DNA from: a virus
Virus record (IMG/VR): IMGVR_UViG_3300045988_146431
Span: 12,528 to 44,527 of that record
Length of the DNA: 32,000 bases
Strand: one strand, 5' to 3'
The position numbers and the translations under genes are program-made. The notes under the pieces were generated by a model. It was not told the DNA's origin. It was given only the letters and a program-made list of their open reading frames with translations, and did no database searches. Position 1 is the first letter of the stretch. The number at the start of each line of letters is the position of its first letter. Below, piece after piece: positions 12,430-29,206 of the stretch.

Positions 12430-12630
12430 TTACTGTACCTCCTCAAAGTCTTCATAAGAACCGCGATACATACATTTGTATGCTCGCAAGTCCTTTTTCT
12501 TTTGTTCCAATTCGTGCATTAACACTTCATTCTGATATTCTAAATTGTTGATTCTTCCAGATACAACAATCGAATACAACATCATTGCTGCAATGCTACC
12601 GAAAAAGAGTCCTGCAATAAAATAAATCAT
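12430..12630 (-). CDS. Small membrane protein (66 aa)
   Basis: N-terminal TM (IYFIAGLFFGSIAAMMLYSIVV) plus a coiled coil. ATG 12630 shares 1 nt with the upstream stop. Confidence 0.55.
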   Translation of the reverse strand: MIYFIAGLFFGSIAAMMLYSIVVSGRINNLEYQNEVLMHELEQKKKDLRAYKCMYRGSYEDFEEVQ

Positions 12631-19968: not shown

Positions 19969-20868
19969 CTACTTTCTTTTAGCATAACTCAATGATTCAA
20001 GATTCTGCTTTTTCATTTTCCTTGTTGTACGAACATAGATTCTTGTAGTTTCTAAACTAGAATGGCCCAAAATGTCAGCTAGTTCAGTAATCGCATTTTC
20101 ACCATTCTGCATCAAATACTGAATCGCAAACAAATGTCTGAATGCATGAGGATGTACTTTACCAAGCTTAATCCCTCTGCATTTACCAGCAATCATCTTT
20201 AAATCTCTAGACAACACACGAGCGTTTACAGGACTTTTCTTATCAGAAGATGTAAATATACACCCTTCTTCAATTTTGTTGTCCTTGCAATATTTTAGAA
20301 GCTCTCTGCGCAAGTCTGAACGTAGAATGATTCCTCGACCTTTTCCTTTGTTCATAACATACACATTGTCATCCGTTACTGCTTCTACAGTAAAAAACTG
20401 TAATTCGCTCAAACGAATGCCCGTATACCCAAACACCTTCATGATCTCGTATAAGTCCATACGATTGATTTCTCGGGCTTTTTTCAATAGCCTTTGAAAT
20501 TCATTAGGTTCTAGAATATCATCCAAAGAATCATCTTTCTGGACTCTTACGTTCTTCAATAAGTTCTTTGAATAATATTTCTTTAGCTTAAGAAAATTGA
20601 AATCATCATCTAAATCAATGATTTCGCTATACTTAACAAATTTATTAATAATCACGATATAATTATTCACTGTACTGATTTTATAATCATGCAGCAGTTT
20701 ATCTTTAACAGTAACTATATCGCTCTTTTTTATTTCACCATCAGGCAATGAGTTAACAAACAAAGTAGCAACATGCTTGTATTTACGAATGGTATTCTTA
20801 CTTTTCTCATCCGCTGTTTCTTCTTCAATAAACCCGTCAATTTTTGTTTGTAACTCATCCTTAGTCAT
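19969..20868 (-). CDS. Second tyrosine recombinase (XerC/D-like, 299 aa)
   Basis: GIRLSEL (Arg box), HPHAFRHLFAIQYL (HxxR) and LGHSSLETTRIYV (His and Tyr nucleophile). No arm-binding N-domain like the 365-aa integrase. Confidence 0.85.
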   Translation of the reverse strand: MTKDELQTKIDGFIEEETADEKSKNTIRKYKHVATLFVNSLPDGEIKKSDIVTVKDKLLHDYKISTVNNYIVIINKFVKYSEIIDLDDDFNFLKLKKYYSKNLLKNVRVQKDDSLDDILEPNEFQRLLKKAREINRMDLYEIMKVFGYTGIRLSELQFFTVEAVTDDNVYVMNKGKGRGIILRSDLRRELLKYCKDNKIEEGCIFTSSDKKSPVNARVLSRDLKMIAGKCRGIKLGKVHPHAFRHLFAIQYLMQNGENAITELADILGHSSLETTRIYVRTTRKMKKQNLESLSYAKRK

Positions 20869-22147: not shown

Positions 22148-22224
22148 ATTATAGTTAGTTAAAATAACTTTGTAAACAATAATTTGTTATTTTAGTTAAC
22201 TTCTACATTTTCTTTTGTTATAAT
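22148..22224. promoter_or_regulatory. Lysis-lysogeny switch: divergent promoters and operators
   Basis: Minus strand: TTTACA (22176-22171), 17 nt, TATAAT (22153-22148). Plus strand: TTAACT (22196-22201), 17 nt including TGt, TATAAT (22219-22224). An imperfect inverted repeat ttagttaaaataac (22155-22168) / gttattttagttaa (22186-22199) matches at 12 of 14 positions. Confidence 0.6.
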
Positions 22225-22253: not shown

Positions 22254-22658
22254 ATGGAAGAAACAATTGGGCAACGGATAAATGTTGTCAGAAAGAAATT
22301 AAATTTAACACTTGAAAAATTTGGTGAAAAAATCGGAATTTCAAAAGTTTCCGTTAGAGCCATAGAAAAAGGAATAAATAACCCATCAGAACAAACTATA
22401 AAATTAATTTGTAGTGTATATAACGTTGACTATGCATGGTTAACTCAAGGTGTTGGAGAAGATATTTTTATTTCCATTCCTGAGTCAAAGATAGATCAAA
22501 TCATGGAAGATTATGGCTTAACTGAAAAAGAGCGACCACTTGTTCGAGGATATTTGGAAGCACCCGAAGAAGTCAGACAACAAGTTGCCGATTATTTAAA
22601 TTCAATTGTTGAAAGAGAAATAGCTAGAAGAGAAAAAGAAAAGAGTAACAAGAAATAA
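22254..22658 (+). CDS. CI-like repressor (XRE HTH, 134 aa)
   Basis: IGQRINVVRKKLNLTLEKFGEKIGISKVSVRAIEKGINNPSEQTIKLICSVYNVDYAWL. One of the few plus-strand genes, and divergent from the early operon. Confidence 0.8.
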   Translation: MEETIGQRINVVRKKLNLTLEKFGEKIGISKVSVRAIEKGINNPSEQTIKLICSVYNVDYAWLTQGVGEDIFISIPESKIDQIMEDYGLTEKERPLVRGYLEAPEEVRQQVADYLNSIVEREIARREKEKSNKK

Positions 22659-22677
22659 CTTGTTACTCTTTGTTTTA
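22643..22677. terminator. Bidirectional terminator (repressor / lipoprotein)
   Basis: The 10-bp stem GAGTAACAAG/CTTGTTACTC (22643-22668) has the repressor stop in its loop. T-rich runs on both sides. Confidence 0.65.
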
Positions 22678-22695: not shown

Positions 22696-23478
22696 TTAAT
22701 CTTCTGAATCTTCATTTGATATTTTTGCAGATGGAAACGCTATAACTATTTTGTAATCATCATAAGTTGATGCATCGTCTAAGTCAACGTGGTTTGGACT
22801 TATATTAAAATTTTGTTTGTCTTTATAATCTAAATCGCTAATATACTTACCTGTTGAACCAATTAATTTTTTATCTTTATAGAATACACCTATAACTTCT
22901 ACTTCCGATACCCCTTCAGGATATTCCTCCAGGTCACTACAAATTGATCCAACTAATTCTTTATGTGTTTTACCTTCAGGGTTAGAACCATAATTTTTCA
23001 CATCATCAATTCGAGTATCTTTTAATTTGAAAAGATCATTTGATTTTTTTCCTTTAGCTAAAGGTTCAGAAAATCCACCTGAGTTTTCAATATCTTCTAT
23101 TCTAAATTTAACTTTAGCAGGTTTTTCACTCACTGCGGTTACGTACCAAGAAATATATGTATGATTTTTAGCTAATATATAACCAGTATACATTCCTTCT
23201 TCTTTAATGCTATATCCATCTTCATCTTGGCAATCAATAAATAACCCTTGGTAATTGTTTGCATCATATGAATTTGGGTTAATCACTTCTACTGAATAAT
23301 ATACATCCCATATACCATCTCCTCTATCTTGAATATCATAGTAAGATTCTCCAATTTCCAACGATTGATTTTTTATAGCATTATCTTTATTTTCTGTTGA
23401 TGATGTATTGTTGTTTGAACATCCAATTAAACATATAACCATCATTAAAGATAATGCTAATGATAAGTACTTTTTCAT
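22696..23478 (-). CDS. Lipoprotein (260 aa)
   Basis: MKKYLSLALSLMMVICLIGCSNNN has lipobox LIGC. Located in the lysogeny region, convergent with the repressor. Confidence 0.75.
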   Translation of the reverse strand: MKKYLSLALSLMMVICLIGCSNNNTSSTENKDNAIKNQSLEIGESYYDIQDRGDGIWDVYYSVEVINPNSYDANNYQGLFIDCQDEDGYSIKEEGMYTGYILAKNHTYISWYVTAVSEKPAKVKFRIEDIENSGGFSEPLAKGKKSNDLFKLKDTRIDDVKNYGSNPEGKTHKELVGSICSDLEEYPEGVSEVEVIGVFYKDKKLIGSTGKYISDLDYKDKQNFNISPNHVDLDDASTYDDYKIVIAFPSAKISNEDSED

Positions 23479-23600
23479 AATTCACCTTGCATGCCCTTTC
23501 ATATTTAATATTAAACGATTTACGATAATTATTCTAGGATTTCATCCTATCTTCTACTTATTTTTTAAAATTTGCGCACTAATACCTATATGTATTAGTG

Positions 23601-23720
23601 TTATTCATTTTTAGATGATAACAGAAGTCTTTGTGCATGATTATATAGAATTTGCAAATCATCCACATTAAGTTTTTCTACTAGGATAATTAATTTTGTT
23701 ATCCATAAATCCCTTTTCAT
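23601..23720 (-). CDS. Possible 39-aa protein
   Basis: GAAAGGGA RBS 8 nt upstream. Hand translation: MKRDLWITKLIILVEKLNVDDLQILYNHAQRLLLSSKNE. Confidence 0.4.
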   Translation of the reverse strand: MKRDLWITKLIILVEKLNVDDLQILYNHAQRLLLSSKNE

Positions 23721-23756
23721 AAGATCATCCCTTTCCATTCAGTTTTTATGAACAAA

Positions 23757-23807
23757 AAGGAAAACGTTTTCCTTATTCTAATATAAGTCTTAAATTTTAT
23801 ATGTCAA
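23757..23807 (-). promoter_or_regulatory. Promoter-like element with overlapping 18-bp palindrome
   Basis: Minus strand: TTGACA (23807-23802), 16 nt, TATATT (23785-23780). The perfect palindrome AAGGAAAACGTTTTCCTT (23757-23774) sits at about +1 and is followed by TTTTTG. It could be an operator, or a terminator for upstream transcription. Confidence 0.35.
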
Positions 23808-23901: not shown

Positions 23902-24078
23902 TAGAATTTTTAATGAAATTTTGGCTATATTATTAATAACCGATTTTGCTTTGTAAATATTTATTAATATTTTGCATTTTTCATTACTATTTTTAAAATG
24001 TGATGTTATTATTCATGTGTACATGATAAATATTTTAGGCTTTTTTCTATTTTCTCAAGAAAAGATTAGCAGAGAATG

Positions 24079-24121
24079 AAAAACAGATAGTGGTGTTGAG
24101 CAGCATACACTATCTGTTTTT
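24079..24121. terminator. Bidirectional intrinsic terminator after the cargo pair
   Basis: AAAAACAGATAGTG (24079-24092) pairs with CACTATCTGTTTTT (24108-24121), 10 nt from the stop of 24131..24895. Confidence 0.65.
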
Positions 24122-24130
24122 CTTTTTATA

Positions 24131-24895
24131 TTAGCTAAATAAGCCTTTCTCTTTTTCAAGATCACTGAATGGAACTGTCATTATTCCATATTGTTTAAAA
24201 CCTTGCACGATATCGCTTTTTATTGTTTGAGCATCGTTTAGAATTACAATGCATTTCGCATCGTTTCTAGTCTTTTCTATATCCAACCACGCAAATACTG
24301 TAGTAGTCAGACTATCTCTAGTAGGATTGTTGATTGCCTTGCATAAGCGCTCGTTGTGATTTTTATTTCTTTGAAAGCATAGATCAAATTTTTGAGTTAG
24401 TCCTGACCTTCCAACAAATGAAACGTTATCCGAAAAATAAATATCATTTTTAATAAAAAAGTTTGTTACATCTTCCAAGAAATATGATGTAGTACGAACT
24501 GTATTGGTTAAATACATATCGTCAATTTGAAGCATTGTCATTGCTAATTGATGCACTTTAGATGGTAAATCCTCTTCAGATGATAAAACAGTCATTTCAT
24601 TATCATCACTTAAGGAAACCCCTGACAACATACAAATTTGTTCAATGGTTTTTCTTCTGCTGGATTTCTTACCAATATTCATGCCTGTATCGATAAGATT
24701 ATTTATAATATATCCATCATCGGAAACCAAAAACATACCGTTTTCTTTTTTATCATCCACATAGCAAACTATTGAATCTCCTATGTGATCTTCAAAAGGA
24801 AGGACTATTTCATGTGCAGTTTCTATTTTTTTTACAGATAAATTGGATTTTAAAAAATTCAAATAATTCTTTGCAAAGTCTTTTAAATTTTCCAT
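24131..24895 (-). CDS. Hypothetical protein, DUF1828+DUF1829-like architecture (254 aa)
   Basis: GGAGG RBS 9 nt upstream. The N-terminal part (VLPFEDHIGDSIVCYVDDKKENGMFLVSDDGYIINNL) and the C-terminal part (VGRSGLTQKFDLCFQRNKNHNERLCKAIN...VFAWLDIEKTR...IVILND) resemble my memory of the DUF1828/DUF1829 pair. Function unknown. Confidence 0.7.
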   Translation of the reverse strand: MENLKDFAKNYLNFLKSNLSVKKIETAHEIVLPFEDHIGDSIVCYVDDKKENGMFLVSDDGYIINNLIDTGMNIGKKSSRRKTIEQICMLSGVSLSDDNEMTVLSSEEDLPSKVHQLAMTMLQIDDMYLTNTVRTTSYFLEDVTNFFIKNDIYFSDNVSFVGRSGLTQKFDLCFQRNKNHNERLCKAINNPTRDSLTTTVFAWLDIEKTRNDAKCIVILNDAQTIKSDIVQGFKQYGIMTVPFSDLEKEKGLFS

Positions 24896-24922
24896 AACAC
24901 CATTCCTCCCTACAAAAACATT

Positions 24923-25408
24923 TTAACAAAATCTAGGCATTTCCACCACGCTATTTTTGTTTAATTCAATTACTTTAAATTTTCTTAAAAATTCTACACA
25001 ATAGTTTACCAAGTTAGGATTATTGATATCAAACTTTGTTGCATATTTATCTTGGTATTGTTCGGTAAATATATGTAGATGAGTTCCATAAATAATTTCT
25101 CCATCCGGATTTTTATGAGCGTGGTTATCAGGAACTACATCCAATCGCATCAAAGGTAATTTTGCTTCTTTATCTAAGGCAAGATATGTTAGTTTATCAG
25201 ATTGTCTGTTACCTCTACGCAAAATAATTTTGAATTTATGTTTAAATTCTTCTATAAGATAAGCTTCATATTCATTTCTTTCAGCTGGATTTGGAATTTC
25301 AATTTGTTTTTCTTGTAATCTCTTAAGTCCATCTAATAATTTTCTGATTTCTTCTTCTTTCATTTCCTCGTGCACCTCTATATTAATTTTAATATCGACA
25401 TTATTCAT
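24923..25408 (-). CDS. Hypothetical protein with His-rich HxNPDG...HLH motif (161 aa)
   Basis: ATG lies 6 nt after the integrase stop with no obvious SD, suggesting translational coupling (alternative start at Met16). Charged helical N-terminus. C-terminal LMRLDVVPDNHAHKNPDGEIIYGTHLHIFTEQY. Confidence 0.65.
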   Translation of the reverse strand: MNNVDIKINIEVHEEMKEEEIRKLLDGLKRLQEKQIEIPNPAERNEYEAYLIEEFKHKFKIILRRGNRQSDKLTYLALDKEAKLPLMRLDVVPDNHAHKNPDGEIIYGTHLHIFTEQYQDKYATKFDINNPNLVNYCVEFLRKFKVIELNKNSVVEMPRFC

Positions 25409-26512: not shown

Positions 26513-26828
26513 TTTTTGTGCCCTCTTATATGTCCATAATATGCAAAAAAAGGGTATAATTCAATATTTTAATATCAAATTATACCCCAAAGTACCCCAA
26601 GACAAATAAAAAAGCCTTTAAATAAAGGCTTAAATTTCAATGGAGCAGATGAGGGGATTATATAAATACCTCATATCTATTGATATTTGATGTTATTTAC
26701 ATCGTTATCTACGTGTTTTGATAGCACTTTGTTGTTTTGTACCCCAAAATGTACCTCACTGCTTCACGCAAGAAAAATAATACAGTATAAACTATATTAT
26801 GTCAAACAATTTTTTATATTTTTTTATT
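26513..26828. other. attP-like region between endolysin and integrase
   Basis: No credible ORF. Contains a 34-bp imperfect palindrome (26553-26586) and TACCCCAA three times (26583, 26593, 26740). Also has a promoter-like TTGACA-17-TATTAT on the minus strand (26805-26777) and a terminator hairpin. Confidence 0.45.
26602..26631 (-). terminator. Intrinsic terminator (end of late/lysis transcription)
   Basis: AAGCCTT (26612-26618) pairs with AAGGCTT (26625-26631), followed on the minus strand by TTTTTATTTG. Confidence 0.6.
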
Positions 26829-28786: not shown

Positions 28787-29206
28787 CTACGCAATCTTTT
28801 TAATGATAATGTTTGCATTTTGAACAGATAGATCTAAACCACTGTCATTTGCTAATGCAATTGTATAAGATGCGCCACATGGAACTTGAATTAGAGTGTC
28901 TCCACTTACATTTCCATACGCACTTGCAGTTGCAACAGTATAAATAGATTGTGTTCCACCAATTGCTTCTCCGTTTAGTTCAAGCACTAAAGAAGCTTGT
29001 CCTGCCGCTGCACTCGTAATATCCGCAGTATAAGTTACTTCATAGATACCTGGCTTTGTTAGTGTAAACAATCCACTTCCTAGATCATGAGCAAGCCAAC
29101 CTTTACATGGACACTGGCAGGATTTACTTCTTACACGATCTGTAGGAAACAATACATTATTTGAATTATCGACTGTCTGAACAGCCGTAGCAATACTATT
29201 AATCAT
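28787..29206 (-). CDS. Cassette gene 4: BclA-C-terminal / C1q-TNF-like jelly-roll protein (139 aa)
   Basis: AGGAGGA RBS. ...CQCPCKGW...GIYEVTYTADITSAAAGQASLVLELNGEAIGGTQSIYTVATASAYGNVSGDTLIQVPCGASYTIALANDSG...NANIIIKKIA parallels the remembered BclA C-terminal domain pattern. No collagen GXX repeats. Confidence 0.55.
   Translation of the reverse strand: MINSIATAVQTVDNSNNVLFPTDRVRSKSCQCPCKGWLAHDLGSGLFTLTKPGIYEVTYTADITSAAAGQASLVLELNGEAIGGTQSIYTVATASAYGNVSGDTLIQVPCGASYTIALANDSGLDLSVQNANIIIKKIA

Follow-up and report, generated by a model that had tools for sequence, protein, structure and literature searches.

Which function is encoded by the two genes that lie directly behind the integrase gene of the virus deposited as IMG/VR record IMGVR_UViG_3300045988_146431? 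We have analyzed a stretch of 32,000 nt from this record (positions 12,528 to 44,527), termed the window; all coordinates given here refer to the whole window. Downstream of the integrase gene int, an open reading frame of 161 amino acids (aa), designated gene A, and a gene of 254 aa, designated gene B, are located on the minus strand and separated by a spacer of 27 nt, at the positions given in an earlier note made from the sequence. That note had proposed a two-component anti-phage or abortive-infection system, or a toxin/immunity pair. Our analysis identified A and B as a copy of the candidate defence system PDC-M24, which apparently is dispensable cargo of a temperate Holdemanella phage.

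Identification of A and B as PDC-M24

The product of gene A matched the Pfam family DUF6978 (PF22398) with 84 bits and an E-value of 1.5e-23 over profile positions 1-133 of 133, the gathering threshold being 29.6 bits. The product of gene B matched DUF1828 (PF08861; 61.5 bits, E = 9.6e-17, residues 33-124) and, C-terminal to it, DUF1829 (PF08862; 78.5 bits, E = 5.6e-22, residues 162-245), both above the gathering threshold, as expected from the architecture that had been suggested for this protein. The accompanying statement that this architecture has no assigned function is essentially right, but the pair had already been catalogued. Both sets of PADLOC profiles for PDC-M24 were matched, by A with PDLC04536 (E = 8.1e-23, profile positions 5-139 of 148) and PDLC04538 (E = 2.1e-21) and by B with PDLC04539 (E = 4.9e-67, profile positions 1-249 of 255). 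Furthermore, the two genes are adjacent on the minus strand in the order A then B, which is the order of the PDC-M24 cassette. Judged by these matches, the pair is the catalogued candidate PDC-M24 and not a new kind of system; the genome scan has found it again.

PDC-M24 denotes phage defence candidate, multi-gene no. 24 (Payne et al., bioRxiv 10.1101/2024.01.29.577857). It originates from a "guilt-by-embedding" approach in which genes inside BREX, DISARM, and type I restriction-modification (R-M) loci were collected; 145 curated candidates resulted, and mobilome-associated families were left out by the curation (Payne et al., bioRxiv 10.1101/2024.01.29.577857). The supplement of that study lists the cassette FAM_00129>>FAM_00065 with the remark 'Assign as candidate PDC-M24' and also a cassette FAM_01408>>FAM_00065, in which the B family has another partner. 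The copy in the window differs from the defining copies in RefSeq genomes in that it is prophage cargo beside an integrase gene instead of being embedded in one of these defence loci, and in having the 27-nt spacer and a separate ribosome-binding site for B instead of the usual overlap of 4 nt.

The A family comprises 465 representative clusters at 50% identity. The B family is larger, exceeding 6,400 clusters at 90% identity, and its members hardly vary in length (about 254 aa). NCBIfam contained no family for A or B, and PHROGs only families of unknown function. When the PDB was searched by sequence, neither protein gave a meaningful match, be it with single sequences or with profiles of the family; matches to Ku80, peroxiredoxin, and YbgF were noise (E > 0.1), and a match of B to the PADLOC profile BnzA (Bunzi) was too weak to use (E = 0.003, 14 bits). 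A tblastn search of phages with A gave nothing at E ≤ 1e-5; phage homologues of A were found via the neighbours of B and by Pfam and PADLOC.

Conservation of the A-B operon

Reference-genome loci containing B (80 in total, from Bacillota, Planctomycetota, Acidobacteriota, Verrucomicrobiota, Chloroflexota, Proteobacteria, Spirochaetota, archaea, and others) were examined for the presence of A; 78 were assessable, and B was located at a contig edge in the other two. A homologue of A was present directly upstream of B on the same strand in 69-70 of the 78 loci, which answers the co-occurrence question raised in the earlier note. Of 69 loci, 42 showed an overlap of 4 nt between the two genes, and seven an overlap of 1 nt. 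The reverse question, whether A always has B as its neighbour, was covered only for close relatives in viral and metagenome collections and for phage genomes. At the level of sequence, A and B are thereby shown to form an obligate-looking operon with the order A then B, conserved across bacterial phyla. Because the A stop and the B start overlap in most reference loci, the translational coupling typical of this system appears to be that of A with B, rather than that of A with int. The overlap therefore points to coupled translation and, probably, to a stoichiometric A:B complex.

Another gene preceded B in several loci. In the Methanomicrobiales loci L049 and L054, a gene of the size of DUF5131 (240 aa) was located just upstream of B, and that of L054 was confirmed as DUF5131 (PDC-M41B/M30B-like); in L071 and L079 of the same order, an uncharacterised gene of 388 aa took this place. 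In the bacterial locus L066, B was preceded by an AriA/PtuA-like ABC ATPase in place of A. These loci suggest that B is a portable effector module, more so than A. Among the 150 nearest neighbours, the type I R-M specificity subunit HsdS (4-5), type I methyltransferases (3), and MADS mad2 (3) were the commonest.

Additionally, the pair was found by Pfam and PADLOC in the lysogeny module of Staphylococcus phage 37 (ORF031/ORF014) and likewise in S. pseudintermedius phage phiSP119-3, Streptococcus phage Javan642, and Lactobacillus phage Lj965 (Ljo_0292/0291). In these four isolated temperate phages, it is located between repressor and integrase genes and is co-directional with both. In the window, too, it occupies the interval between int and a Cro/C1-type repressor gene, as had been noted before. 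A distant gut locus (L001) showed the order A-B-int with a dedicated promoter. Apparently, the position of the pair relative to int varies and its location in the int-repressor interval is constant.

Domains and predicted fold of B

A model of B was generated with AlphaFold2 (AF2) from 121 sequences and reached a predicted local distance difference test score (pLDDT) of 91.9. It consists of two domains linked by a long helix. In a Foldseek comparison with the PDB, the DUF1829 domain matched AF1548 (1y88; E = 7e-4, probability 1.00, root-mean-square deviation (rmsd) of 3.2 Å over 114 columns). Further matches were obtained with VC1899, the nuclease domains of Cdn1 and Can2, R2 RLE, PspGI, MspJI, NucS/EndoMS, DdmD, and Avs4. 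According to this model, DUF1829 of B is a restriction-endonuclease-like PD-(D/E)xK fold, in agreement with what had been supposed for the C-terminal half of the protein. In an alignment of 219 sequences, D171, E182, R183, N189, D205, N220, and D221 of this domain were conserved to at least 94%. D171 (94%) fits strand beta2 and E182 (97%) the start of beta3 of the nuclease fold, and the position +2 after E182 is hydrophobic. The DUF1828 region contains a cluster of near-invariant acidic residues, E29, D36, D40, D59, and D60, in the same alignment; this cluster is a candidate sensor or second catalytic site. A and B of the window keep every position that is conserved to at least 95% in the two families.

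Translational start of A

Gene A had been described as starting 6 nt after the int stop codon with no Shine-Dalgarno (SD) sequence, and expression coupled to int had been deduced from this arrangement. Comparison of 27 close alleles led to a different result. The ATG at codon 1 (25408) was present in four of them and replaced by ATA in 23; 19 alleles had an upstream ATG at codon 6 instead, and four had neither. Only the ATG of M16 (25363) was found in all 27 alleles, and the GAGGTG element in front of it was invariant in all aligned relatives, the sequence AGAGGTG ending 9-11 nt upstream of M16. Position 1 of the Pfam profile DUF6978 aligned with residue 16 of the 161-aa frame, and gene callers gave 146 aa for A in seven close relatives (L008-L014). 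Furthermore, the first residue of the distant homologue P0005 aligns with M16, and in locus L001 this homologue has a strong SD sequence and a near-consensus promoter of its own. Most likely, gene A encodes 146 aa, starts 51 nt past the int stop codon, and has its own weak-to-moderate SD sequence. Some ambiguity remains, as M16 is replaced by Trp in the variant P0001, whose start must lie further upstream. Translational coupling of int and A is unsupported because the ATG needed for it is peculiar to few alleles. Co-transcription of int and A is plausible because no terminator-like hairpin was found between them.

Conserved site and predicted fold of A

Residues of A are numbered from M16 in the following. 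Among 215 distinct members of the family, H83 (99%), N85 (98%), H95 (99%), H97 (98%), and E101 (85%) were conserved, and likewise R73, D75, and A108. H83, H95, and H97 correspond to H98, H110, and H112 of the 161-aa frame. The His-rich core to which the earlier note had drawn attention is thus real as regards these near-invariant residues, but the first His of its 'H-x-H' (NHAHK) is not conserved. An AF2 model from 127 sequences (pLDDT 96.5, predicted template modelling score 0.90) was all-beta and placed the conserved His residues on adjacent predicted strands; His83, His95, and His97, together with Glu101, are a candidate metal or catalytic site. Foldseek searches of PDB and BFVD revealed no structural relative of A, nothing being found below E = 0.03 (best PDB match, E = 0.034). 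FlgE-D2, OspA, and Rpn13 were rejected as fold relatives at template modelling (TM) scores of about 0.2-0.3. Fused domains were searched for in longer homologues of A, and none was found; the extensions look like mis-called starts.

Cupins contain 3-His-1-Glu metal sites, and their motif 1 reads G-x5-HxH-x3,4-E-x6-G. A resembles them in being small and all-beta and in its sequence G88-x6-H-x-H-x3-E-x6-A108. The third His of A, however, is located upstream of HxH, and not in a downstream motif 2 as in cupins. An assignment of A to the cupins was rejected, as no cupin occurred among the Foldseek matches in the PDB and no cupin family matched in Pfam.

Loss and exchange of A and B in sister phages

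Three states of the locus were observed in sister Holdemanella phages, namely an intact A-B pair, a frameshifted A with an intact B, and an excised A with a truncated B. A was disrupted by a deletion of 1 nt in L095, L096, L098, and L099, found in many samples, and independently by a deletion of 2 nt in L007; B was intact in both cases. In L129-L133, A was cleanly excised and the DUF1829 half of B was replaced exactly at the domain boundary; int and the terminator were kept. A 134-aa protein consisting of DUF1828 only is left in these phages and recurs in many samples. In some phages, it is a PBECR-type toxin cassette that has taken the place of the DUF1829 half. Among intact alleles, the ratio of nonsynonymous to synonymous substitution rates (dN/dS) was lowest for int (0.03), followed by B (0.07) and A (0.25). 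Taken together, these alleles show that A and B are accessory cargo which is under selection when present.

Since two independent frameshifts of A coexist with an intact B, B is argued not to be lethal without A; as a caveat, int was also truncated in some of the prophages with a broken A. The pair is dispensable and no integration factor, because it is frameshifted, deleted, or swapped in sister phages.

The slot between the terminator of B and the repressor gene (22696-23807) was a hotspot of cargo exchange (L007-L014, L095-L099, L129-L133). Relatives carried MazEF, an Ltp-type exclusion lipoprotein, a YbjQ-like protein, a 260-aa lipoprotein, or a PBECR3 nuclease-toxin cassette in it. In the window, this slot contains a near-consensus promoter TTGACA-16-TATATT at 23807-23780.

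Proposed function and alternative explanations

A nuclease-based two-component defence system is the best-supported reading of A and B, its mechanism being inferred. We estimate the probability at about 0.55 that the pair, as a copy of PDC-M24, is a candidate two-gene anti-phage system carried as dispensable cargo beside the integrase of a temperate Holdemanella phage. A and B would probably be expressed in the lysogen from an int-proximal promoter and form an A:B complex that stays inactive until a cue from a second infecting phage arrives; foreign or replicating DNA or a phage protein are candidate cues. The DUF1829 nuclease of B, once triggered, would cut DNA, and the invader would be blocked directly or by abortive infection. 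A would be the sensor or regulatory subunit, dependent on a metal, or else a further subunit with enzymatic activity. B would be the more portable effector, paired elsewhere with an AriA/PtuA-like ABC ATPase or DUF5131. A DUF6978-like protein of S. aureus was detected by proteomics and dropped about threefold under ciprofloxacin (bioRxiv 10.64898/2026.05.15.725322), which may be taken as a weak hint at expression in the lysogen.

Several observations weigh against a defence function. The model relies on inference for its trigger and target as well as for the A:B complex and for lysogenic expression. The 145 candidates were stated to be untested (Payne et al., bioRxiv 10.1101/2024.01.29.577857), other PDC candidates failed when assayed (PMC12409345), and no paper naming PDC-M24 or assaying its anti-phage activity was found in the searchable literature. 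Nuclease activity of B is not assured because the canonical lysine of the D...(D/E)xK motif is not evident in DUF1829, E182 being followed by R183; R183 (98%) or K163, which is R in the window, might substitute for it, and the catalytic competence of B is deduced from the model. B of the window furthermore deviates from the family consensus at R37H, H38I, N39G, H168Q, and K163R. In Streptococcus phage Javan642, the DUF6978 homologue encoded by gene 0003 (L100 3003-3470) contains Arg and Asn in place of His95 and His97, and this copy of A may be degenerate or functionally shifted. The neighbourhoods are heterogeneous, with 173 Pfam families among the 150 neighbours, and the R-M counts are without a genome-wide control. 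Finally, frequent loss and breakage in sister phages fits a costly accessory cargo but also a pair of little benefit.

Alternatively, the pair might serve to stabilise the prophage or other mobile element as an addiction or toxin-antitoxin module with no direct role against phages; B as the nuclease or A as a metal-dependent enzyme would be the toxin, and the other protein its neutraliser. The compact operon with overlapping genes and the small gene first, as in many type II toxin-antitoxin pairs, is consistent with such a module, as are the location on mobile elements and, in sister phages, beside MazEF. The sole validated system with DUF1829, DS-6/HipAD, has been interpreted as toxin-antitoxin-like (PMC13092281). 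Alleles with a broken A and an intact B are compatible with A as the toxin; conversely, the two independent frameshifts of A beside an intact B with its own strong ribosome-binding site indicate that A is not an essential antitoxin for B. The earlier proposal of a two-component anti-phage or toxin/immunity pair thus holds in that A and B are a real module matching PDC-M24A and PDC-M24B, but A as the antitoxin is disfavoured. Neither protein matched a toxin-antitoxin family in Pfam, NCBIfam, PADLOC, or PHROGs, and A contains no DNA-binding or helix-turn-helix (HTH) domain, nor do members of its family contain fused domains. We consider an addiction module without a defence role unlikely; moreover, it would not be exclusive of defence, as many toxin-antitoxin pairs are abortive-infection systems. 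Quite unlikely, in our estimation, is a selfish or mobility-related DNA-processing cassette that spreads between R-M loci and prophage ends to propagate itself or to further the exchange of cargo, without defending the host; a nuclease of the homing type or one associated with recombination, together with an accessory subunit, would be an example. The PD-(D/E)xK fold would suit it, and so would the recombination-prone sites at which the pair occurs, namely beside integrases, within type I R-M loci, and at a hotspot where cargo is exchanged and breakpoints fall cleanly on module boundaries. However, the pair is stable enough vertically for strong purifying selection, its order and overlap recur across 69 genomes of many phyla, and families associated with the mobilome were left out by the PDC curation.

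Counter-defence cargo shielding the phage or lysogen, for instance by degrading a signalling molecule or a nucleic acid of the host defence, seems very improbable. Temperate phages do carry the pair, the 3-His(+Glu) site of A could belong to a small-molecule hydrolase, and full-length B showed weak, architecture-level Foldseek matches to CARF nucleases that are activated by cyclic oligoadenylate. Yet the pair also occurs outside phages, as all 80 reference loci are bacterial or archaeal genome contigs from many phyla and their commonest nearest neighbours do not include integrases; it is embedded inside R-M, BREX, and DISARM loci, which is the opposite of anti-defence behaviour; and Firmicute phages place it in the lysogeny module, co-directional with the repressor, and not among early lytic genes. 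An accessory factor of integration or excision, such as a recombination directionality factor acting as a partner of the integrase, is brought to mind by the position beside int here and in Staphylococcus, Streptococcus, and Lactobacillus phages. Homology to such factors had been named before as a finding that would speak against defence, and no match to a recombination directionality or accessory factor was found in Pfam, PADLOC, PHROGs, or NCBIfam; neither A nor B contains a Xis or HTH domain. The pair of L005 and L006 occurs without an integrase among the annotated neighbours, the genes most often found next to the pair in the reference loci do not include integrases, and the order is not fixed (int-A-B here, A-B-int elsewhere). 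Sister phages with an intact int in which A is cleanly deleted and B truncated effectively refute a role in integration or excision.

A more far-reaching version of the defence reading, which we regard as decidedly speculative, is that PDC-M24 is a mechanistically new two-component immunity. A, with an all-beta fold not seen before and a 3-His-1-Glu centre, would make, destroy, or sense a small molecule or a nucleic-acid modification, and B would read this out via the acidic pocket of DUF1828 and switch on the DUF1829 nuclease. Such a signal-effector logic may be like that of CARF-nuclease systems, built from unrelated parts.

If the defence reading is correct, PDC-M24 immunity is widespread in bacteria, with B also in archaea, and is borne by temperate phages of Staphylococcus, Streptococcus, Lactobacillus, and Holdemanella. 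Prophages of Firmicutes commonly carry the pair, among them phages of S. aureus and of commensals of the human gut. As a defence, it would shape which phages superinfect lysogens and bear on gut phage ecology and on host range in phage therapy. A working system would have a defined anatomy to test, with a PD-(D/E)xK effector domain, an acidic pocket in DUF1828, and a 3-His partner of unknown fold. The mechanism of B would also annotate thousands of "DUF" genes in bacteria and archaea.

Comparison with known defence systems

DUF1829 also occurs in the second protein of DS-6/HipAD, a validated two-gene anti-phage system (DefensePredictor, Science 2026, PMC13092281). The architecture is different, as DS-6B consists of DUF3037 and DUF1829, whereas B consists of DUF1828 and DUF1829. 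In place of a DUF6978 protein, DS-6B has as its partner a HipA-like kinase that acts as the toxin; furthermore, the DUF1829 protein of DS-6 was modelled as DNA-binding and antitoxin-like and not as the effector (PMC13092281).

PARIS (AriA/AriB), Septu (PtuA/PtuB), and Gabija, two-gene systems with a PD-(D/E)xK or Toprim nuclease and an ABC ATPase partner, follow the same logic of a small operon encoding a nuclease effector and a separate sensor or regulator, and the AriA/PtuA-like ATPase in front of B in L066 provides a link to them. However, A is not an ATPase and contains no recognisable nucleoside triphosphate-binding motif, these systems have no counterpart of DUF1828, and there is no sequence homology.

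The best Foldseek matches of full-length B were the CARF nucleases Can2, Card1, VC1899, and Cdn1 (E = 2e-4 to 3e-3), which share with B an N-terminal alpha/beta domain and a C-terminal PD-(D/E)xK nuclease. TM scores were 0.31-0.37 at an rmsd of 10-13 Å, and the superposition was limited to the nuclease domain. The predicted topology of DUF1828 is alpha-beta4-alpha-alpha-beta and not Rossmann-like as in CARF, and no cyclase or CRISPR genes are located nearby. Both the topology and the global TM score led us to reject B as a CARF-nuclease effector.

Organization of the locus

The features of the locus are compiled in Table 1. A megablast search of INPHARED with 5 kb around the locus gave no match.

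Table 1. Features of the int-A-B locus and its surroundings, given in window coordinates (32,000 nt)
Feature	Position	Strand	Remarks
Holin gene	28224-28003	-	from the gene order of the window
Amidase endolysin gene	27905-26829	-	followed by a gap of 316 nt before the integrase gene
attP core CCCCTCATCTGCTCCA	26641..26656	-	equals the 3' end of host tRNA-Gly(GCC); prophage end beside int
Candidate int(-A-B) promoter, TTGAAT-17-TATTAT	26536..26564	-	consensus scan only, weak; downstream of the att-side terminator hairpin
Tyrosine integrase gene (int), 365 aa	25415..26512	-	Pfam Phage_integrase, E = 4.6e-19; weak match to Arm-DNA-bind_4; heads the int-A-B cluster
Gene A, open frame of 161 aa	24923-25408	-	directly after int; begins at the non-conserved ATG 25408
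Gene A, 146 aa from M16 (DUF6978 / PDC-M24A)	24923..25363	-	conserved start; most likely extent
GAGGTG, SD-like element of M16	25373..25378	-	read from the sequence; invariant in all aligned relatives
Conserved core of A	25061..25117	-	H83-K-N85-P86-D87-G88 ... G-x-H95-x-H97-x3-E101 (M16 numbering)
GGGAGG, ribosome-binding site of B	24905..24910	-	from sequence inspection; 9 nt upstream of the ATG
Gene B, 254 aa	24131..24895	-	27-nt spacer from A
DUF1828 domain of B	24524..24799	-	residues 33-124, alpha/beta; Pfam coordinates
DUF1829 domain of B	24161..24412	-	residues 162-245, predicted PD-(D/E)xK fold; candidate effector nuclease
Intrinsic terminator closing int-A-B, probably bidirectional	24078..24122	-	15-bp stem, A5/U5 flanks
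Cro/C1-type HTH repressor gene	22254-22658	+	int-A-B cluster and lipoprotein gene converge on it

The ribosome-binding site that had been reported for B as GGAGG was found as part of GGGAGG. The strong terminator postulated behind B was confirmed by folding, as the hairpin reached -19.8 kcal/mol (z = -5.36) and none of 200 shuffled sequences folded equally well; it is kept in relatives with different cargo. Downstream of it, an open reading frame of 45 aa and a gene for a lipoprotein of 260 aa with the lipobox LIGC (23478-22696, minus strand) are located. A perfect bidirectional terminator with a stem of 13 bp (22640-22671) lies between the convergent lipoprotein and repressor genes, and divergent promoter-like sites at 22148-22224 resemble a lysis-lysogeny switch.

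Promoter-like sites in the consensus scan were not enriched over shuffled sequences (37 as compared to 31.9 expected), so no promoter is called firmly. A near-consensus promoter TTGACA-17-TATTAT (11/12) was located at 26777-26805 on the minus strand, right after the endolysin stop codon and upstream of attP, with no obvious gene between it and the terminator-like hairpin at 26631-26612. This hairpin directly follows the attP core and probably replaces the terminator of the tRNA operon upon integration.

The attP core was placed by the homology breakpoint between the window and integrated copies, and the 16-mer is unique in the window. ARAGORN identified the tRNA-Gly gene at 6181-6254 of L009; in Holdemanella, it is located downstream of thrS and tRNA-Ser/Asp. 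According to the integrated copies, the host is Holdemanella (H. biformis / H. porci; Erysipelotrichaceae, human gut); the flanking genes thrS and smpB are so named, and homologues of the integrase are named site-specific integrase [Holdemanella biformis]. Two copies of int-A-B at a distance of 45.3 kb were found on one contig of 120 kb (L013 and L014; ASCI21-1 scaffold_72); host thrS precedes one copy, and the phage lysis genes precede the other. The duplication reflects a tandem double lysogen, or else the integrated and circular forms were merged during assembly.

A second tyrosine recombinase of 299 aa (19969-20868, minus strand; Phage_integrase, E = 2.4e-18) is encoded in the early/replication region and conserved in all sister phages. 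Additionally, a possible receptor-binding or fibre tip protein of 139 aa, with a BclA C-terminal (C1q/TNF-like) domain, is encoded between the tail genes and the holin gene (28787-29206, minus strand).

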